From assembly GCA_023953775.1 (NCBI GenBank), contig JAMLJD010000002.1:39245-103244 (forward strand): a stretch of 64,000 nucleotides of DNA, read 5' to 3'. Of this stretch, positions 29,172 through 57,647 are shown piece by piece. Below the pieces are notes generated by a model that did not search any database, was not told the origin of the DNA, and saw only the letters and a list, made by a program, of their open reading frames with translations. The DNA is from Rhizobiaceae bacterium (lineage in GTDB: Bacteria; Pseudomonadota; Alphaproteobacteria; Rhizobiales; Rhizobiaceae). Position 1 is the stretch's first letter; each line of letters begins with the position of its first letter. The translations under genes and the position numbers were made by a program.

Positions 29172-30407
29172 CTATCGCGCTCCCGGTCCGGCAACCGCCT
29201 TGGCAGGCACCGGTACTTCGGTTTCGCCGGCGACGTCGTCGATCTCGGTTGGCGACAGCGTGGTGATGCGAGCAAGCACCTCGCGCGTATCCTCGCCCAG
29301 TTTGCGGCTCGGCGGGATCGTCATCGGCTCCATTCCGTCGAAGCGGATCGGTGTTTGCTGGACGATGATTCTGCCGATCTCAGGATGGTCCTGATATTGA
29401 AGGGCGCCGCGCTCATGCATGTTGCGGTCGCAGATCACCTCATCCAGATCGCGCACCGGCGCGCACGGCACATCGTGGGCCATCAGGATGTCGAATATCT
29501 CCGACTTGGTCCGTGGCCTTGTCCAGGCGGAAACATAGTCGTCCACCACGTCCATGTTCGTCACGCGTGACTTCAAGTCGACGAAACGCGGATCCTCTGC
29601 AAGCTCTGGCATGTCCATCGCCTTCACGAGAGCCCGCCATTGCGCCTCGCCGACACACAGGATGGCTATCCAGCCGTCCGAGGTCGGATAGACGTTGTAC
29701 GGGGATTCGGCCATGCCACCGTGGCGGTTTCCGGTCCGCGGCGGGATACCGCTTCCATGGCCTCCCCAATGCATGCCCAGGCTTGAGCTCAGCGAGGCAT
29801 AGACCGCATCCTGCATGGCCACTTCCACACGCCGCGCCTCGCCTGTCCGTTCGCGGTGATAGAGCGCGGTCAGGATCGCCGAATGCAGATGGATTCCGGC
29901 GAAGAAATCGCACAGCGCGGGACCCGCCTTGACCGGCGGGCGGTCGGGAAATCCCGTCGTCGCCATGACGCCCGAGATCGCCTGCACCGTCAGGTCCATG
30001 GCGAGGTACTTGCGATACGGACCGGTGCTGCCGAAGCCGGAACTTGCCGCATAGATGAGCCGCGGATTGATCTTCTGCAAGGCTTCGAAGCCGAGGCCGA
30101 GGCGATCCATGGTGCCGGGCGAGAAATTCTCGACGACGATGTCGGCCGTCTCGGCCATATCGAGGAAAGCCTTCTTGCCGAGTTCGGACTTGAGGTCGAG
30201 CGAGATCGACTTCTTCGCACCGTTCAACATGGCGAACGGCAGCGCCGCGCCGCCGACAACCCCGCGCCGACGCAGCGGCTCGCCCGCTGGCGGCTCGATC
30301 TTGATCACCTCGGCCCCAGCCAGGGCGAGCAGATAGGTTGCGTACGGGCCGTTATAGATCTGGCTCAGATCGATGACTCGAATGCCCTGGAGAGGATAGT
30401 CACTCAC
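29172..30407 (-). CDS. Family III CoA-transferase (CaiB/BaiF)
   Basis: The ORF has the hallmark LQGIRVIDLSQIYNGPYATYLLALAGAEVIKIEPP.GEP.R. It uses a GTG start and is 411 aa long. Confidence 0.9.
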   Translation of the reverse strand: MSDYPLQGIRVIDLSQIYNGPYATYLLALAGAEVIKIEPPAGEPLRRRGVVGGAALPFAMLNGAKKSISLDLKSELGKKAFLDMAETADIVVENFSPGTMDRLGLGFEALQKINPRLIYAASSGFGSTGPYRKYLAMDLTVQAISGVMATTGFPDRPPVKAGPALCDFFAGIHLHSAILTALYHRERTGEARRVEVAMQDAVYASLSSSLGMHWGGHGSGIPPRTGNRHGGMAESPYNVYPTSDGWIAILCVGEAQWRALVKAMDMPELAEDPRFVDLKSRVTNMDVVDDYVSAWTRPRTKSEIFDILMAHDVPCAPVRDLDEVICDRNMHERGALQYQDHPEIGRIIVQQTPIRFDGMEPMTIPPSRKLGEDTREVLARITTLSPTEIDDVAGETEVPVPAKAVAGPGAR

Positions 30408-30479
30408 GGTAACAACGCGGTCCCTTGATTGCGTTTCCTTGGTATCGCGGCCCTGCCCGACTGGTCCGTAAGACCGACT

Positions 30480-31448
30480 TCACGCCCAATGGTCGAGCGC
30501 GGCACCCGCGACCGGCGCCGGAAGGCAGGAGATCGAAGCGGTGGTCAACGCGCCAAGATAGATGGTTTTCCGATCCCGGCCGCCGAATGCGATGCTCGAA
30601 AGGTTGGAGACGCGGCTGCCTTTGCTTTGCACGATCATGTCGCGGGTGAGCCGGCCCTTCGAATAAGCCTCGGACATCTGGTTGAAGAAAGCCGGATCGC
30701 AATCCTCGAAGACGATCTCCCAGGAAAGATCCGGCGCGATGCGGAGGATCCGGTTGGACACCGGACATACGGTCCAGAGGCAACCCGTCTCGTCGAAGGC
30801 GAGACCGTCGGGAAAGGTACCGGCGGGAAATTCGACATGCGCCCTGGCCCCGAGGGAGCCGTCGGCTTCAAGATCGAACCGCGTGGTGCGACAGGCGAAG
30901 GTCTCGTTGACGAAAAGATGCCGGCCGTCCGGAGACACACGCAGCTCGTTCGTCCACGTCAGCCCGTCGGCAACGATCCGGGCGCGGCCGCCTTCGACCA
31001 GGATGATGACACCGCTGTCCTCGTCTTTCGTGAAGTATTCGTGGGACCGGGTCGATGCGCTGACCGTGATCCAGATACGCCGACCATCGACGAGCACGAA
31101 ATTCGCGGGCGGGATCTTGTACCCCCCGACGTCAAGCAGGAACGGCTCCGCCGGACCGGTGCTTCCGACGTGCCATACTCCACCCTTCTCTCCGAGGTTG
31201 GCGAAGAGGAAACCGCCCTCCGGTGCAATCGCCACGCCGTTCGGCAGGAAACCTCCCTCGATGAGCGGTGTCTCGACGGCCGCACTGACACCGCCATCGG
31301 GCGCGATGCGTGCGATGCCGAGCGTCCAGTCAGGCGTGAAAAGATCGCCGGACGGCGTCGCGAGCACGCATTCGGGGCGACTAAGCCCGCTGCCCAGCGA
31401 AGAGATCTCGTTGGTCGAGAAGAGCCGGATGTGCGTCTCAACGGTCAT
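30480..31448 (-). CDS. SMP-30 / gluconolactonase / LRE-family beta-propeller hydrolase
   Basis: The ORF shows the repeated propeller pattern with PEC(V)L, LPNGVAI.PEG, VSPDGRHLFVNETF and FPDGLAFDE.G.LW. The start was chosen at ATG 31448. The ORF stays open to TTG 31475. Confidence 0.8.
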   Translation of the reverse strand: MTVETHIRLFSTNEISSLGSGLSRPECVLATPSGDLFTPDWTLGIARIAPDGGVSAAVETPLIEGGFLPNGVAIAPEGGFLFANLGEKGGVWHVGSTGPAEPFLLDVGGYKIPPANFVLVDGRRIWITVSASTRSHEYFTKDEDSGVIILVEGGRARIVADGLTWTNELRVSPDGRHLFVNETFACRTTRFDLEADGSLGARAHVEFPAGTFPDGLAFDETGCLWTVCPVSNRILRIAPDLSWEIVFEDCDPAFFNQMSEAYSKGRLTRDMIVQSKGSRVSNLSSIAFGGRDRKTIYLGALTTASISCLPAPVAGAALDHWA

Positions 31449-31650
31449 GGCGCGCTGTTCTGCCTTGCAAAGCAAGCCGAAGCCGGGTTGGGGAGGTCAT
31501 GTGTCTGTGGATCATTTTTGAGACTTTGTTCCACCAACGGCGACCAGACAAGCTGCATGGGCGCTGCGGCCGGCAACGGACCGTTGCGCAATTCGTGGCG
31601 ACCGCACCTGATGTGACCGCCGGTCGGTGCGTTACGCGGGCTGCGATTCG

Positions 31651-32829
31651 TCACGGCTTGCCCGTCCTTGCGTGGAAATCCTTGTCCGCAGCATGTTTCG
31701 CGAACATCTCCTGCGCCGCCTTGTTTCGCTTCTCTTGGTAGTCGGCGGCGTTCATCTGCAGCGATTCCCAGCTCGCGAGCCTGTTGGCGTTGACGCCGCT
31801 GAAATGCGGCATCACGTAGCGTGCATAGAGTTCGTAGGATTTCTTCGTCTGATCCCAGTCAGCCCAGTCGACATGCTGGTGGAGAAACACACCGAAATCG
31901 CCTTGCTTCCCGTGCAGGCGCTCAATAAGCGCTATGGCGTCATCGGGCGTTCCAATGACGGCGCGACCTGAATCGACCAGTGCGTCGACGGGATCCTTGC
32001 CCTGGGTGTCGAACGGCTGCGGGGCGACGCAGGAATAGTATCGGATCCAGCGCTCTAGGCCGTAGCGAACATTCTCTCTGGCCTTCTCACGAGTCTCCGC
32101 AATATGCATCGGCGCAACGAGACGAAGGTTCTGCCGGTCCATGATGTTGCCGTGGATTGCGCCCATCTCCTCGGCGATCTTCCAGTTCTCGGCCAGAACA
32201 TTGAAGCCGCCAATATCGGTCGCCGCCACGCACAGCATCGAGAACCCGTATTTGCCGGCAGTGCGGCCGCCCGAGGGGGTGCCCGAACTCGCGACCGCGA
32301 TCTGCGGGTGCGGCCGGGTGAAGGGAAGCAGATGCAGCCGCGCGTTTTCAAGCGTGAACCAGTCGGTCTTCTCGGTGACGATTTCACCCTTGAGAAGCCG
32401 CAGGATGACCTCGATCGCTTCGGCCATCATCTGCCGGGTCTGACCCGGCTGGATGCCCAGCATCGCGGCATCTTCGACCAGAAGGCCTGGCCCGAGTCCG
32501 AATATGGCTCGACCGCGCGTCAGGTGATCGAGCTGGGCGATACGGTTCGCGACCATGAGCGGATTGTGGTACGGCAGCGTGATGACGCCGGTGCCAAGCC
32601 TGATCCTGCGTGTGACCTCCGCCGCCGCCGCGATCATCAGCTCCGGAGATGAAATGGTCTCCAGCCCCCCGGAGTGGTGTTCTCCGAACCAGTACTCATC
32701 GTAGCCGAGGTCATCGGCGATGCGCGCCAGCTCGATATCCTGGCGTAACCCGATCGTCGGATTCTCGACCGGATTGTGGAACGGTGCGAGGAACACACCG
32801 TGCTTAAGGACCACCGGATTCTCTTGCAT
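31651..32829 (-). CDS. Luciferase-like (LLM-class) flavin-dependent monooxygenase
   Basis: The ORF contains HGVFLAPFH....NPT......IELARIADDLGYDEYWFGEHHSG and RIRLGTGVITLPYHNP. It resembles two-component FMN monooxygenases such as the limonene/diketocamphane monooxygenase class. Confidence 0.85.
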   Translation of the reverse strand: MQENPVVLKHGVFLAPFHNPVENPTIGLRQDIELARIADDLGYDEYWFGEHHSGGLETISSPELMIAAAAEVTRRIRLGTGVITLPYHNPLMVANRIAQLDHLTRGRAIFGLGPGLLVEDAAMLGIQPGQTRQMMAEAIEVILRLLKGEIVTEKTDWFTLENARLHLLPFTRPHPQIAVASSGTPSGGRTAGKYGFSMLCVAATDIGGFNVLAENWKIAEEMGAIHGNIMDRQNLRLVAPMHIAETREKARENVRYGLERWIRYYSCVAPQPFDTQGKDPVDALVDSGRAVIGTPDDAIALIERLHGKQGDFGVFLHQHVDWADWDQTKKSYELYARYVMPHFSGVNANRLASWESLQMNAADYQEKRNKAAQEMFAKHAADKDFHARTGKP

Positions 32830-32943
32830 GCCTTGTCTACTCCCTCGGCCTTGCGGGCCGTCGAGCGGCTTGCGGCAACGCCATTTCACGCGTCACCACC
32901 CACCTCGATTTGATAAGTCCATTGTCCCGCGCACGATGGCGCG

Positions 32944-32955
32944 GTTGCAAGCAAC
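32944..32955. promoter_or_regulatory. Short palindrome in the divergent LLM / flavin-reductase::MarR promoter region
   Basis: GTTGC-AA-GCAAC lies roughly midway in the 260-bp divergent intergenic region. It is a candidate MarR-type operator. The evidence is weak because the repeat is short. Confidence 0.2.
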
Positions 32956-33088
32956 GCGGCCGCGTGTCGGCGTAAAGCAGTGTTGCAGGACGCGCACTTC
33001 CGAAGCCCTTCTCGCCCCACGTATCACTGCCGGATAGAGAAATGCCGCCGCAGCCAGCGGCCGCGAACAGCTCCCGCGGAGGTCGGAC

Positions 33089-34123
33089 ATGGCAGATCGC
33101 AAGCGCCACGAACCGAAGGAGATCGAGGACGCGGATGCCGGGCGACTCGTCGCGCGCAACGAGCCCGAAGCTGATCTCGACGCCTACCGCCGCTGTCTCA
33201 GTCAGTTCGCGACCGGGGTGACCGTGGTCACGGCCAGGAGCGGGTCGCAACTCGTCGCGATGACGGCGAACTCGTTCTCGTCGGTCTCGCTCGATCCGCC
33301 GCTGGTATCGTGGTCCGTCAAGCGGGACAGCCAGAGCTTCCAGGCGTTTTCCGAGGCGTCCGGTTTCGTGATCAACATTCTCTCGAGCGACCAGATCGCA
33401 CTGTCACGCCACTTCGGAAAATCAGGAGACGACAAGTTTTCCGGCATCTCGTGGACGCCTGGTGTCGATGGATTGCCGCTGCTGAGCGGCGCGGCCGCAT
33501 GCATCGAATGCCGAAGGGTCCGCGACTTCGACGGCGGAGACCATCTCGTCATGTTGGGGCAGGTCGTACGGTTCACCCATTTCGACCGCAACGTTCTCCT
33601 CTTCGTTCAGGGCAAGTACGGCGTCGTCGGGGAGCATCCCGAACTGTTGACTGGCATGGGCGGAACCAAGGACGATTTCGCGGCAGGACCAGTCAACGAG
33701 TTCTTTGCCGGCCTTATGTATCGTGCATACGGCGCACTGGCCGTTGGGATGACGCAAGCACAGCATGAGCTCGGCTTCGATCCGGTCGAGGGACGGCTAC
33801 TCGGCGCTATCGCGACTTTCGCCGGCAGGACGGCCGAAACCCTGCTTCCCGAACTCTACCTGAGCACCAACGCGACGGAGAACGGTATCGCCTCACTCCG
33901 TGACCAAGGTCTCGTGGACGTTGCAGAGAGTGGGGTATTGCGGCTTTCAGATAAGGGGCAGGAACGCCTGAAAGATCTCACGCAGGCAATCCGCCTGCAC
34001 GAATCTGCTTTGCTGGACGGCGTCGCCCCCGCCGACGTCGAGCGGGCCCGTGGCGTAATGCGCCGTGTCATCGAAAACAGTCGCAGGAATAAGCGATTGC
34101 AGGACGGTGCCGCCGCAGACTGA
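33089..34123 (+). CDS. Fusion protein: NAD(P)H-flavin reductase domain plus a C-terminal MarR-like winged-helix domain
   Basis: Residues about 30-190 read FATGVTVVTAR....LVAMTANSFSSVSLDPPLVSWSV.....S...F......FVINIL...Q...S..F and GDHLVMLGQV, which is the Flavin_Reduct pattern. Residues about 215-330 show the MarR topology: LMYRAYGAL...GFDPVEGRLLGAIA...TAETLLPELYLSTNATENGIASLRDQGLV...RLSDKGQERLKDL. Confidence 0.75.
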   Translation: MADRKRHEPKEIEDADAGRLVARNEPEADLDAYRRCLSQFATGVTVVTARSGSQLVAMTANSFSSVSLDPPLVSWSVKRDSQSFQAFSEASGFVINILSSDQIALSRHFGKSGDDKFSGISWTPGVDGLPLLSGAAACIECRRVRDFDGGDHLVMLGQVVRFTHFDRNVLLFVQGKYGVVGEHPELLTGMGGTKDDFAAGPVNEFFAGLMYRAYGALAVGMTQAQHELGFDPVEGRLLGAIATFAGRTAETLLPELYLSTNATENGIASLRDQGLVDVAESGVLRLSDKGQERLKDLTQAIRLHESALLDGVAPADVERARGVMRRVIENSRRNKRLQDGAAAD

Positions 34124-40484: not shown

Positions 40485-41252
40485 CTAACGGAAGTGCTGT
40501 CCACCATTGATATCAAGCGTGGCCCCGGTCATGAACGCGGAAGCGGGCGACGCGAGATAGGATGCGAGTGCCCCGATCTCGCCGGGAGACCCGACGCGGC
40601 CTGCCGGGACGTTGAGGACGGCCGGACCTTCCTGTCCGGACGGAACGACCTGGCGCAGCATGCGCGATTCCACCATGCCCGGCGCGATGCAGTTTGCGGT
40701 CACACCGATATCCGCGCCCTCTCCGGCGGCGGTCTTGGTCAATGTCAGGACCGCGCCCTTGGACGCGGAATAGGCCGCGCTCCCGCGAAAACCTCCGACA
40801 TGCGCCGCAACGGAGCTGATCGTGATGATGCGGCCGTGCTCGACCGGTTCCGCGCGGCGGCGGCGCAACATTTCTCGCAGCATCAGAAATGTACCGGTCG
40901 CATTGACGTCGAATGTCCGCCGCCAGTCTGCAAGGGTCGTGTCTGCGATGCCGGTCCTATGAACCCCGTGGCTGATGAGAACGCCCGCGCATGTGACGAG
41001 TATCGATACCGGGCCGAGTCCAGCTTCGACCTCCCGGAAAAGGCGCTCGGCTTCGCCTTCACTGGTAACATCGCATCCGAACGCAGCATGCGTTTCGTCC
41101 TTGCCCAGATCGGCTGCCGTCGCACGAGCGTCGTCGACGTCGCTGTCCGCGACCGCGAGTACGATCCCGTCGGCAGCGAGCGCGTTGCAGATTGCGCGGC
41201 CGAGGCCGCCTCCGCCGCCAGTGACGAGCGCGACTCTCTTCCGGCCTGTCAG
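40485..41252 (-). CDS. SDR-family oxidoreductase with no canonical start codon
   Basis: The frame reads LTGRKRVALVTGGGGGLGRAICNALAADG...NATGTFLMLREML...YSASKGAV...PGMV. There is no in-frame ATG/GTG/TTG upstream of MLREML (40883). The only plausible start is CTG 41252, which overlaps the ACAD stop codon. Confidence 0.65.
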   Translation of the reverse strand: MTGRKRVALVTGGGGGLGRAICNALAADGIVLAVADSDVDDARATAADLGKDETHAAFGCDVTSEGEAERLFREVEAGLGPVSILVTCAGVLISHGVHRTGIADTTLADWRRTFDVNATGTFLMLREMLRRRRAEPVEHGRIITISSVAAHVGGFRGSAAYSASKGAVLTLTKTAAGEGADIGVTANCIAPGMVESRMLRQVVPSGQEGPAVLNVPAGRVGSPGEIGALASYLASPASAFMTGATLDINGGQHFR

Positions 41253-42399: not shown

Positions 42400-43233
42400 T
42401 CAGCGCGATGGCTTCGTGTTTCGGTCCCGGCGGTTGTAGGCGGGAGTTCGTTTTGCGAGTGCCGCTTCGACGCCCTCGCGGAAGTCGGCGCTGTACTGGA
42501 GCGTCGACGTCGCCCAGTAGCTCGCGGACATCGACCCGTTGAGGTCGGTCTCCCAGCTGGCACGAAGCAGGTGCTTGGTGGCCTCGAGTGCCTTGCGCGG
42601 ATAGGCAGCGATACGCGATGCCAGCGCGAGAACGGTTTCGAGGAGCTTGTCGTCATCCACGACGTCGTTCAGCAGTCCGAGCTTCAGCGCGCGCTCCGCG
42701 CCTATGAGATCGCCGGTGAATGCGAGTTCCGCCGCAATCCCCGATCCGACGAGCCGCGGCATCAGGTAAGCGCCGCCGTTTCCTGGCGCCAATCCCAGCC
42801 GGATGTAGGTCTCGCCCACGCGTGCCGATCGTGCGGCGATGCGCATGTCGCAGGCGAGCGACATGTCGAAGCCGCCGGCGGTCGCAGCGCCGTTGAGCGC
42901 GGCGATGGTGGGAATGCGCAGGTTGCGCAGGCGCGGCGTGACCGGTGCGAGCAGCCGGGCGTTGAACGGCTCCTCCTCGATCGCCATCCGCTCGTCCAGA
43001 TAGATCTTCATCGCATCGAGATCGGCGCCGGCGCAGAAAGTCTTGCCCGCGCCTGTGAGGACGAGCACGCGGATGCCGAGGTCGGCATCGACCTGGTCGA
43101 GACAGGCCAGCATGTCGCGGATGAGCTCGGGCACGACGCCGTTGCCCTGATGCGGACGGTTGAGCGTCAGCATTCCCACGCCTTCCGCGGGCAAATCCAG
43201 ATAAAGGGTCTCGAACTCCGCGAGCCTTTCCAT
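42400..43233 (-). CDS. Enoyl-CoA hydratase/isomerase (crotonase) family protein
   Basis: The ORF contains LTLNRP...N, VLVLTGAGKTFCAGADLD, AALNGAATAGGFDMSLACDMRIA and GLAPG.GG. Confidence 0.85.
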   Translation of the reverse strand: MERLAEFETLYLDLPAEGVGMLTLNRPHQGNGVVPELIRDMLACLDQVDADLGIRVLVLTGAGKTFCAGADLDAMKIYLDERMAIEEEPFNARLLAPVTPRLRNLRIPTIAALNGAATAGGFDMSLACDMRIAARSARVGETYIRLGLAPGNGGAYLMPRLVGSGIAAELAFTGDLIGAERALKLGLLNDVVDDDKLLETVLALASRIAAYPRKALEATKHLLRASWETDLNGSMSASYWATSTLQYSADFREGVEAALAKRTPAYNRRDRNTKPSR

Positions 43234-43244
43234 CGGCGGCCTCC

Positions 43245-44423
43245 TCAATGTACCGAAGACAGGATCGTGACGACGGCGACGGCATAGGCGTCGCCGACCC
43301 AGCCGCCGGAATTGGCGGCCAGGGCGATCTGCGCTCCGTCGACCTGCCGCTTGTCGGCGCGACCCTTCAGTTGGCTGTAAAGCTCGAAAATCTGGGCACA
43401 GCCGGTGGCACCGAGCGGATGTCCCCTGCTCATCAGGCCGCCACTCACATTGACCGGGATCCGGCCGCCCAGTTCGGTCTCGCCCTTGCGGATGATGTGA
43501 TGGCCTTCGCCGACGCCGCACAGGCCGAGATCACCATACTGGATCAGTTCCGCAGGGGCCGCAGCATCGTGCAGTTCGACGACGTCGATATCCCCGATCC
43601 CAAAACCCGCGGTTTCGTAGGCCTTGCGCGCAGCATCAGCGACCGGGCTCGAACCCTTGCCGGTCCCCGGCGCGATGCAGGTCGCGAGGATACGCGGACC
43701 TGATATGCCGTGGCGCGCGGCAAACCCGCGGCTGCAAACGACGACCGCGGCGGCCCCATCGCTCACCGGCGAACACATCGGCAGCGTCAGCGACGGCGCG
43801 ATCTCGCGTGAGGCGAGCACCTCATCCAGCGTCAGTGGTGTCCGGAAATGGGCCCTGGGGTTCATCGAAGCATGCCGGCGGTTCTTGACCGCGACGCGCG
43901 CAAAATCCGCGAGCTCGGCACCATAGTCGCGGATGAGTTCGCGCCCTTCTGCCGCATACCCCTCCATCAGCGCCGCGCTTGCTTCGGGATGTTCGTGAAG
44001 ATCGACTTCGCCGATCTCCCCGATATCCATTGCCCCGCGCAGCGCCGTGAAAGTTCGTTCGCGCTCGACATGGGAAAGCTGCTCCGCGCCGACAGCGAGG
44101 GCCACGTCACATAGCCCGGTCGCGACCGCCTCATAGGCGAGCTTCAATGCGCTGCTGCCCGAGGCGCAGGCATTTTCGACATTGATTATGGGGACATGCG
44201 CGAGCGGCGTATGGCGGAACGCGACCTGGCCCTTGACCATGTCCTGATGGCTGACTGTCGGCGCCACCGCATTGCCGAAGAAGATGCGTTCGACCCGTGA
44301 CTGGTCGATATCGGCATCGGCAAGCGCATCGGCTGCTGCCTTGACGGCGAAGTCGCGGACACCCGTTCCCGGAAGCTTCCCGAACCGGGTCATGCCCGCA
44401 CCGGCGACGATCACATCACGCAT
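43245..44423 (-). CDS. Thiolase-family protein (acetyl-CoA C-acyltransferase / lipid-transfer-protein-like)
   Basis: The ORF begins MRDVIVAGAGMTRFGK. It has the active-site region VENACASGSSAL and C-terminal NVSGGLMSRGHPLGATG and ANSGGW. Confidence 0.85.
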   Translation of the reverse strand: MRDVIVAGAGMTRFGKLPGTGVRDFAVKAAADALADADIDQSRVERIFFGNAVAPTVSHQDMVKGQVAFRHTPLAHVPIINVENACASGSSALKLAYEAVATGLCDVALAVGAEQLSHVERERTFTALRGAMDIGEIGEVDLHEHPEASAALMEGYAAEGRELIRDYGAELADFARVAVKNRRHASMNPRAHFRTPLTLDEVLASREIAPSLTLPMCSPVSDGAAAVVVCSRGFAARHGISGPRILATCIAPGTGKGSSPVADAARKAYETAGFGIGDIDVVELHDAAAPAELIQYGDLGLCGVGEGHHIIRKGETELGGRIPVNVSGGLMSRGHPLGATGCAQIFELYSQLKGRADKRQVDGAQIALAANSGGWVGDAYAVAVVTILSSVH

Positions 44424-56592: not shown

Positions 56593-56678
56593 CGATCTGA
56601 CTAGATTTTGCGCGTCATCCTCGTTCCGCCGATGCCTCGAATACCCGTCGCCGAACGAGTGTGCATGGGAGGAAAACA

Positions 56679-57647
56679 ATGGACACGCTCTATAGTCTTC
56701 GACTCTTCGTCGGAGCTGCCGAGGAAGGCAGCTTCTCCGCCACGGCGCGGAAGTTCGGCATCTCCACTGCCACCGTGTCGCGCAGCATAGATAGCCTCGA
56801 AAAGCAGCTCGGCTTCCAGCTCTTTCTGAAGACCAGCCGCCAGATCGGCCTCACCGAAGCTGGCCAGTGCTATCTCGGGAATGTACAGCGTCTGCTTCCC
56901 GAACTCGACAATGCGACAGAGTTCGCCAGGGGCTTTCACTCGGAAGCGAAGGGTCACCTTAACGTACGTGCGCGCATGGCGGTCGGAAGCATTTGCATTG
57001 CGCCTCTGATCCCCAAATTCCTCGGCAAGTATCCCGATATCGAGCTGAATTTCTGGCTCACCAACGATCTCGATACGGACCTCGTCTCCAAGAATATCGA
57101 CATCGATATCCGCACCGGCGTGCTGCAGGATTCGTCACTCATCGCGCGCAAGCTCGCCGACTCCAAACGCCTGATCGTGGCCAGTCCGGCATATCTGGAA
57201 GAACACGGCACACCCCAGACGCCCTATGATCTCGAGGATCACAATTGCATCCGGTTCACGACCGGTCCGAGTCCCGTCCACTGGCGCTTCAAGGACAAGG
57301 CGGGCCACGAGATCGGCGTTGTTCCGAAGGGCAATCTCGTCACCAACAACGGGTCGATCATCCGCCGCGCGGTACGGTCCGGAAACGGCATCGCGCATCT
57401 TACCGACTGGTCGGTCGCCAAGGACCTCGAGGCGGGTTCGCTGGTGCAGATCCTCGCCGATTACGATGTGACCGTCGACAAATTCAATCACGGTATCTAC
57501 GCCGTGTTCCTTCCCAACCGGACCCAGTCGCACAAGGTCCGCTGCTTCGTCGACTTCCTTGTCGAGGAACTGCGCCAGCAAGCCAGCGCCTGGCCAAGCC
57601 TGGAGAACGAGGACGAGCTTGACGAATATGTGGAGGCGGCGGAGTAG
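56679..57647 (+). CDS. LysR-family transcriptional regulator
   Basis: The HTH is LRLFVGAAEEGSFSATARKFGISTATVSRSIDSLEKQLGFQLFLKTSRQIGLTEAG. A GGGAGG ribosome-binding site precedes the start. Confidence 0.9.
   Translation: MDTLYSLRLFVGAAEEGSFSATARKFGISTATVSRSIDSLEKQLGFQLFLKTSRQIGLTEAGQCYLGNVQRLLPELDNATEFARGFHSEAKGHLNVRARMAVGSICIAPLIPKFLGKYPDIELNFWLTNDLDTDLVSKNIDIDIRTGVLQDSSLIARKLADSKRLIVASPAYLEEHGTPQTPYDLEDHNCIRFTTGPSPVHWRFKDKAGHEIGVVPKGNLVTNNGSIIRRAVRSGNGIAHLTDWSVAKDLEAGSLVQILADYDVTVDKFNHGIYAVFLPNRTQSHKVRCFVDFLVEELRQQASAWPSLENEDELDEYVEAAE

Follow-up and report, generated by a model that had tools for sequence, protein, structure and literature searches.

Gene Content of the Locus

The window, which designates here the whole stretch of 64,000 nucleotides analyzed, harbors a gene encoding a two-domain flavin reductase of 344 amino acids (aa) that is transcribed divergently from the operon of a luciferase-like (LLM) monooxygenase, its presumed oxygenase partner. 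The features of the region are listed below; L numbers designate the loci used for comparison, which were obtained from contigs encoding individual homologues of the reductase.

29172-30407, minus strand: family III CoA-transferase of the LLM operon (CoA_transf_3, E 4e-115; 83% identical and syntenic in L007)
30480-31475, minus strand: SMP-30/gluconolactonase-type (SGL) hydrolase of the LLM operon (Pfam SGL, E 1e-18; syntenic in L007, L097, and L005)
31651-32829, minus strand: LLM monooxygenase (Bac_luciferase, E 5e-47)
32830-33088, no strand: divergent intergenic region of 259 bp between the starts of the LLM and reductase genes
32944-32955, no strand: palindrome GTTGC-AA-GCAAC, probably fortuitous (single occurrence, neither enriched nor conserved)
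32973-32990, plus strand: conserved 18-nt block TAAAGCAGTGTTGCAGGA, a candidate cis-element (17/18 identical in L097/L098)
33078-33082, plus strand: Shine-Dalgarno sequence GGAGG, 6 nt before the reductase ATG, read from the sequence
33089-34123, plus strand: two-domain flavin reductase gene, a single open reading frame (ORF) with an ATG start (full-length matches to NF045919 and to 5ZYR/5ZC2)
33200-33622, plus strand: Flavin_Reduct domain (PF01613), residues 38-178 (Pfam, E 6e-42)
33635-33688, plus strand: flexible interdomain linker, residues approximately 183-200 (low pLDDT; indel-rich and variable in a 32-sequence alignment)
33689-34117, plus strand: MarR-fold domain, residues approximately 201-343, with six helices and a short hairpin (AF2 model, Foldseek)
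33833-33946, plus strand: degenerate winged helix-turn-helix (wHTH), residues 249-286 (aligned against 20 MarRs from the genome of origin)

The LLM protein starts with MQENP, as borne out by its orthologue (84% identical) located at the same place in L007, and the gap between the two divergent genes therefore measures 259 bp, in agreement with the approximately 260 bp given in an initial annotation of this DNA. That annotation also described the product of the divergent gene as a flavin reductase fused to a MarR-like domain, and both parts are indeed found on the single 344-aa ORF, the former by Pfam and the latter by AF2 modeling and Foldseek. The MarR-like helix pattern was correctly recognized, whereas the size proposed for the C-terminal domain (approximately 120 aa) was too small, as it spans approximately 145 aa.

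The N-terminal domain retains residues R34, T59, N61, S62, F63, G150, D151, and H152, which are invariant in the 32-sequence alignment of the reductase, and D69 is kept in 28 of its 32 rows. According to the HMMER alignment to 5zc2, the structure of the C1 reductase presented below, from which the residue correspondences were taken, R34 is equivalent to C1 R20 and lies just upstream of the Flavin_Reduct span, D69 is equivalent to C1 D56, and H152 to C1 H139.

A Genuine Fusion and Its Distribution

A word-seeded homology search with the reductase retrieved 1204 proteins at E ≤ 0.001, and the best 120, which were those listed, are nearly all 310-350 aa long with approximately 90% query coverage; many bear the JGI name "flavin reductase / DNA-binding MarR family." Thirty-two homologues align end to end with the reductase, linker included, and 118 homologues of 295-370 aa, from isolates as well as metagenomes, align over its full length. 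More than 100 homologues keep a full-length C-terminal domain, even at identities as low as approximately 35%, and the same continuous two-domain protein is represented by a solved structure of 315 aa and another of 321 aa.

These data bear on the possibility, already raised in the initial annotation, that an indel or the loss of a stop codon had merged two adjacent genes, one for a short flavin reductase and one for a MarR protein, in the assembly or its annotation. Such an error might be suspected since other genes of the window look frameshifted, for instance a SDR at 40485-41125, and since broken genes abound in L096, a related contig of low coverage. However, the continuous two-domain protein recurs in the 118 homologues and in the two solved structures, and the lost-stop scenario was ruled out because homologues align end to end through the linker. 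We consider the fusion as genuine and the probability of an artefact as virtually nil.

The genome of origin (4.2 Mb in 113 contigs) encodes one copy of the fusion and one short reductase. Among 60 related genomes, only three possess a full-length homologue, at 34-43% identity, and the gene therefore moves together with an accessory catabolic island. To find close syntenic loci, metagenomes were scanned with the reductase protein alone, which returned no matches. An alignment-based scan of genome contigs retrieved mostly short reductases limited to the N-terminal domain, as well as about 10 full-length loci, all at 39% identity or less and hence too distant to help much in comparing promoters.

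Relationship to C1 and Other Long Flavin Reductases

According to the initial annotation, no characterized example of this architecture was at hand. This was wrong, as exactly such a layout is found in C1, the reductase of the p-hydroxyphenylacetate (HPA) 3-hydroxylase (HPAH) of Acinetobacter baumannii (PDB 5ZC2/5ZYR), which has been studied both kinetically and structurally (PMC11618861, PMC10816480). In C1, the NADH site is obstructed by a helix equivalent to the recognition helix of MarR proteins; this latch involves salt bridges of E248 and E251 to R20 and of E250 to R99, while R222 forms a salt bridge to the effector carboxylate (PMC11618861). According to a second report, binding of HPA to the MarR domain lifts this self-inhibition and increases flavin reduction at least 30-fold (PMC10816480).

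The reductase of the window is homologous to C1 over its full length. C1 (5ZC2/5ZYR) is its best PDB match by sequence (E 1e-43, query residues 29-276) as well as the best Foldseek match of the full-length model (298-305 columns, 31-32% identity), and both proteins present, in the same order, a Flavin_Reduct domain followed by a MarR-fold domain, with 31-32% identity over approximately 300 aligned columns. The NADH-contacting residues R34 and H152 are kept. Similarly, the effector arginine of C1 is conserved as R236, located on helix alpha2 of the C-terminal domain and present in 115 of the 118 homologues, and the recognition-like helix carries an acidic residue, E264, at the position of C1 E250. 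On the contrary, the latch residues E248 and E251 of C1 are replaced by A262 and N265, and the latch of this reductase may therefore differ in its details from that of C1; across the family, positions 264 and 265 are acidic in 77 and 62% of the sequences, and the full-length model (pTM 0.58) places the two domains in an uncertain orientation.

The two systems also differ in their partners and neighbors. C1 serves C2, an oxygenase of acyl-CoA-dehydrogenase fold, whereas the partner of this reductase is a TIM-barrel enzyme of the LLM type; and while C1 is found in the context of homoprotocatechuate genes, the neighbors are here a lactonase, a CoA-transferase, and beta-oxidation genes. Because of this different pathway context, devoid of homoprotocatechuate genes, HPA is an improbable effector here. 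NF045919 was the sole full-length NCBIfam match (residues 27-329 against model positions 4-308 of 309), and an assignment as HPAH reductase sensu stricto was ruled out by its score of 208 bits, under the equivalog cut-off of 340 bits, and by the Bac_luciferase/LLM partner, which is not of the C2 type.

The oxygenase of the nitrilotriacetate monooxygenase system of Chelatobacter/Aminobacter, NtaA, is itself an LLM-type enzyme, and since its NADH:FMN oxidoreductase NtaB thus serves an oxygenase of this class, there is a precedent for a MarR-tailed reductase working with an LLM monooxygenase. Like the reductase of the window, NtaB is a long reductase, reported to contain two C1-like domains (PMC11618861); this likeness rests on the published description of NtaB, whose proposed effector contacts are unlike those of C1. 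Substrate-dependent release was proposed for NtaB, and the architecture and mechanism of C1 were predicted to extend to NtaB as well as to the HPAH reductase of P. putida (PMC11618861). The NtaA/NtaB system itself was rejected for this locus, the LLM enzyme of the window scoring 30.4 bits against TIGR03860 (NtaA/DmoA), for which the cut-off is 279.7.

Another alphaproteobacterial long flavin reductase, SMa0793 of Sinorhizobium meliloti (PDB 3RH7, 321 aa), a "hypothetical oxidoreductase" from structural genomics, is 38-39% identical in the N-terminal domain, but the alignment is confined to that domain both by sequence and by Foldseek.

Fold of the C-Terminal Domain

The full-length AF2 model, built on the 32-sequence alignment, has a mean pLDDT of 88. 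Residues 183-193 fall below 50, as expected for a disordered linker, and are followed by six helices and a hairpin of two strands, ordered as in MarR proteins. Modeled alone, residues 195-344 reach a pLDDT of 92 and adopt the arrangement alpha1-alpha2-alpha3-alpha4, beta-hairpin, alpha5-alpha6. When this domain was compared to the PDB with Foldseek, the best 50 matches listed were almost all MarR-family regulators, with TM-scores mostly of 0.6-0.77 over approximately 120-145 columns. The relative orientation of the two domains is uncertain in the full-length model (pTM 0.58), which deviates from 5ZYR by an RMSD of 12.7 Å and does not reproduce the interdomain packing of C1.

The fold is thus that of a MarR protein, but the Pfam models of this family do not recognize it: MarR_2 matched residues 229-281 below threshold (18.7 bits for a cut-off of 27), and a six-frame scan of the genome of origin with PF01047 produced 29 matches, none of them at the reductase locus. 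A phmmer search with the C-terminal domain alone against 1.84 billion representatives gave only 32 significant matches, most of them located at residues approximately 180-320 of proteins of 310-336 aa, i.e., in the same fusion; at the sequence level, the nearest relatives of this domain appear to be mostly the tails of other enzymes rather than free-standing MarRs. It is also the fastest-evolving part of the reductase.

Canonical MarRs such as NadR, HpaR, PcaV, ST1710, and Rv2887 share with this domain the six-helix winged-helix fold (TM 0.6-0.77) and a ligand pocket that lies between the wHTH and alpha1/alpha2 and in which an arginine binds carboxylate effectors. Unlike them, the C-terminal domain sits behind an enzyme, presents a truncated wing without the D-x-R motif and an acidic recognition helix, scores below threshold with Pfam models, and has no conserved palindromic operator at its locus.

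Loss of DNA-Binding Hallmarks

The C-terminal domains of the 118 full-length homologues were compared in a MAFFT alignment with 20 MarRs of the genome of origin found with PF01047. The wing span, from the end of alpha4 to strand beta3, counts 11 residues in the fusions (n = 118) vs. 17 in the MarRs (n = 20), and the D-x-[RK] motif of the wing, present in 19 of the 20 MarRs, occurs in only 9 of the 118 fusion homologues. The net charge of HTH and wing is -2.35 ± 1.8 in the fusions, whereas it amounts to +2.40 ± 2.5 in the MarRs (same samples). Two positions of the recognition helix are especially telling: position 264 (C1 E250), acidic in 77% of the fusions, is never acidic in the MarRs, where Thr or Ser is found, and position 265 (C1 E251), acidic in 62% of the fusions, is likewise never acidic in the MarRs and is often occupied by Arg or Lys. 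In the reductase of the window, the wing reads LVDVAESGVLR and the net charge of HTH and wing is -3. A literature search turned up no publication in which C1, or any other fusion of a flavin reductase with a MarR domain, was seen to bind DNA. Judging from these alignments, a DNA-binding role of the MarR-fold domain is unlikely, and the signatures of the homologues would fit a latch and a ligand site of the C1 type rather than a DNA-reading surface.

The Divergent Promoter Region

The palindrome pointed out in the initial annotation is present at 32944-32955, but it is neither significant nor conserved. Nine inverted repeats (arms ≥ 5 bp, spacers ≤ 10 bp) were counted in the 259-bp gap, whose G + C content is 65%, and such repeats are no more frequent than by chance, as Markov simulations give 5.0 ± 3.4. 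Neither L007 nor L097 has GTTGC-AA-GCAAC in its orthologous gap.

A distinct element, the 18-nt block, stands out by its conservation. It lies 99 nt upstream of the reductase ATG in the window and 96 nt upstream in L097/L098, where the remainder of the gap is unalignable with that of the window, for a chance expectation of 0.04 matches per window. The block has no clear dyad symmetry, and a search for it as a possible regulon operator found no second site in the genome of origin. Compared by eye with sigma-54, LysR (T-N11-A), and GntR (GT...AC) patterns, it showed no convincing fit, and a scan of the 259-bp gap with the sigma-70 consensus found no promoter.

Genomic Context in Related Loci

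One or two LLM genes are adjacent to the reductase gene, or within a few kb of it, in eight out of nine independent homologue loci. The supply of reduced flavin to the LLM monooxygenase, as presumed in the initial annotation, is hence very probable on grounds of gene neighborhood. In L007 and L097, whose reductases are 52 and 51% identical to that of the window, the gene order of the window is preserved: the CoA-transferase, the SGL lactonase, and the LLM gene are encoded on one strand, and next come the divergent reductase gene and, convergent to it, a Liv-type ABC system. With respect to L007, the reductase is conserved at 52% only, vs. 84% for the LLM monooxygenase and 83% for the CoA-transferase. 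In two loci with more distant homologues (L008 and L009), the reductase is encoded behind two genes of acyl-CoA-dehydrogenase fold, as is C1 with C2, and partners of this fold are confined to such distant homologues among the loci inspected.

The relatives of the LLM monooxygenase in the PDB include 3,6-diketocamphane monooxygenase, a type II Baeyer-Villiger enzyme; a search on 7BIP, the PDB entry closest to the LLM enzyme, gave no further clue to the substrate. Because an SGL-type lactonase and a CoA-transferase follow, the LLM enzyme plausibly performs a Baeyer-Villiger-type or hydroxylating step in an alicyclic or terpenoid-like catabolic island.

Dedicated regulators accompany several of these loci. 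The reductase gene begins 2 nt after the LLM gene in L111, where a GntR regulator is encoded upstream, a LysR regulator immediately precedes the reductase in L112, and IclR regulators are found nearby in L003, L005, and L008. From the gene contexts of the nine loci, the fusion is in most cases an enzyme encoded within an operon and accompanied by a regulator of its own. In the window, no canonical regulator was found between approximately 22 and 56 kb, the nearest being a LysR gene at 56661-57647, next to a TRAP transporter, and none was found in the syntenic L007 within 8 kb on either side.

Proposed Function and Alternative Readings

We propose, with a probability of about 0.7, that this protein is a long NAD(P)H:flavin reductase of the C1/NtaB type that serves the LLM monooxygenase and whose MarR-fold tail acts as a substrate-gated intramolecular regulator. 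The domain identities, the homology to C1 over the full length, the lost DNA-binding hallmarks, the kept effector arginine, and the partnership with the LLM enzyme come from the present data, whereas we infer by analogy with C1 its autoinhibition, the nature of its effector, and its flavin specificity. The Flavin_Reduct domain would reduce free flavin, probably FMN, which would then diffuse to the divergently encoded LLM monooxygenase. The acidic former recognition helix may pack on the reductase domain near R34 and hold it in a state of low activity, until an anionic metabolite of the pathway binds R236 between alpha1 and alpha2 and frees the reductase. Reduced flavin, and hence H2O2, would be made only with the substrate present.

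The initial annotation had favored another role, in which the MarR-fold domain binds the divergent promoter and couples the effector or the redox state to transcription, making the protein both an enzyme and a repressor. The complete fold of a MarR protomer, the divergence of the gene from the operon that it serves, and an 18-nt element approximately 98-99 nt upstream of the ATG, conserved in two lineages, would all suit such a function, but the idea is mainly kept alive because no canonical regulator was found near the gene, neither in the surrounding 34 kb or so nor in the syntenic L007. The domain itself argues in the opposite direction, with a wing hairpin 6 residues shorter than in genuine MarRs, a D-x-R motif in 9/118 vs. 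19/20 sequences, Asp or Glu at recognition-helix positions where the MarRs of the same genome have T/S and often R/K, a net negative HTH and wing, and Pfam MarR models that remain below threshold or silent. In the DNA, the 18-nt block is devoid of dyad symmetry, and the palindrome, which does not exceed chance level, lacks conservation. Elsewhere, moreover, the gene lies within operons beside dedicated GntR, LysR, or IclR regulators, and DNA binding by C1 or similar fusions was not found in the searchable literature. We thus regard this bifunctional role as very improbable. We give equally little credence to the variant in which the domain, despite its degenerate wing, has kept or re-evolved DNA binding at the 18-nt block, so that a single metabolite would control flavin reduction as well as the expression of the LLM operon at the level of transcription; if true, DNA binding would account for the absence of a visible separate regulator in the island and in L007.

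Alternatively, the reductase could be constitutive and its tail vestigial or structural, contributing to oligomerization, stability, or docking to the LLM enzyme without any gating by an effector. The replacement of the C1 latch residues E248 and E251 by A262 and N265 would be in line with such a role, and the faster divergence of the reductase (52%) than of the LLM monooxygenase (84%) and CoA-transferase (83%) with respect to L007, together with the fastest evolution of the C-terminal domain, is compatible with a relaxed constraint. However, the domain is predicted to be highly ordered and persists at full length in more than 100 homologues to approximately 35% identity, and both the nearly invariant R236 and the acidic recognition helix are conserved, which argues for selection on ligand and latch surfaces of the C1 type. 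A tail without gating function is hence unlikely, albeit worth keeping in mind.

Under the preferred reading of a substrate-gated reductase, the attractive role of enzyme and repressor is probably wrong, and the gene would join a known class in which a borrowed MarR fold serves as allosteric switch of an enzyme. The near clade of this class is mostly paired with LLM monooxygenases and not with HPAH-type oxygenases. [quoted passage not shown] As many homologues are at present annotated as "DNA-binding MarR family," a wing shorter by 6 residues, the lack of the D-x-R motif, and Asp or Glu at the two helix positions could serve as annotation markers to separate such enzyme tails from real MarRs.

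Conservation of the module and its surroundings

The module was compared between the window (29172-34123) and the syntenic locus L007 (4243-8948), and the flavin reductase with the MarR-fold C-terminal domain was found to share 52% identity between the two, far below its neighbours, namely the luciferase-like monooxygenase (LLM, 84%), the CoA-transferase (83%) and the SMP-30/gluconolactonase-type hydrolase (SGL, 69%). The other syntenic locus, L097, encodes orthologs of the window's CoA-transferase (75%) and SGL (58%), and its LLM is a different one, with 28% identity to that of the window.

The module belongs to a catabolic island that spans about 34 kb (22000-56000) and includes genes for a BVMO, a PRISE-like reductase, the LLM, an ACAD, several SDRs, the CoA-transferase, a lactonase, an ECH, thiolases, two acyl-CoA ligases and a MaoC, as well as for a Liv-type ABC system and an MFS transporter. 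No canonical transcription regulator was found within these limits, and the closest one is a LysR (56661-57647) divergent from a TRAP transporter.

Region upstream of the reductase gene

Two elements lie in front of the reductase gene:

32973-32990, 18-nt block TAAAGCA(G/C)TGTTGCAGGA
33044-33061, G+C-rich hairpin GCCGCCGCAGCCAGCGGC (7-bp stem, 4-nt loop)

The 18-nt block, located about 98 nt 5' of the reductase start, also occurs in L097 (6338-6355) and in L098 (6333-6350), another locus with a reductase homologue. It is conserved between two lineages, the rest of their intergenic regions being unalignable. A weaker form, GTAAcGCtgcaTTGC, is present in L007 at a similar distance from the reductase start. 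The block is a single site within its own genome, no dyad symmetry was detected in it, and we consider it a candidate operator or promoter element.

The hairpin, 27 nt 5' of the reductase ATG, was picked up on the minus strand by a terminator scan, and could represent a 5'-UTR structure or a chance outcome of G+C-rich sequence.

Irregular and fragmented genes

A near-identical copy of the module was present in a metagenome (L096, ENA ERZ2606016, coverage about 1x), where the majority of genes are fragmented, including the reductase (called as 218 aa); these breaks are due to low-coverage assembly errors and not to biology.

Two irregular genes were observed in the window:

40485-41125 (-), short-chain dehydrogenase seemingly in two pieces
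42400-43521 (-), enoyl-CoA hydratase ORF, which as listed shares about 280 nt with the thiolase gene upstream of it

The dehydrogenase may reflect a frameshift or a non-canonical start: the match of its 132-aa ORF (40485-40883) to adh_short_C2 is confined to the C-terminal half of the model (positions 121-236), and the 80-aa ORF upstream had no match in a Pfam search. The true start of the enoyl-CoA hydratase is probably internal, since residue 113 is the first one covered by the Pfam match.
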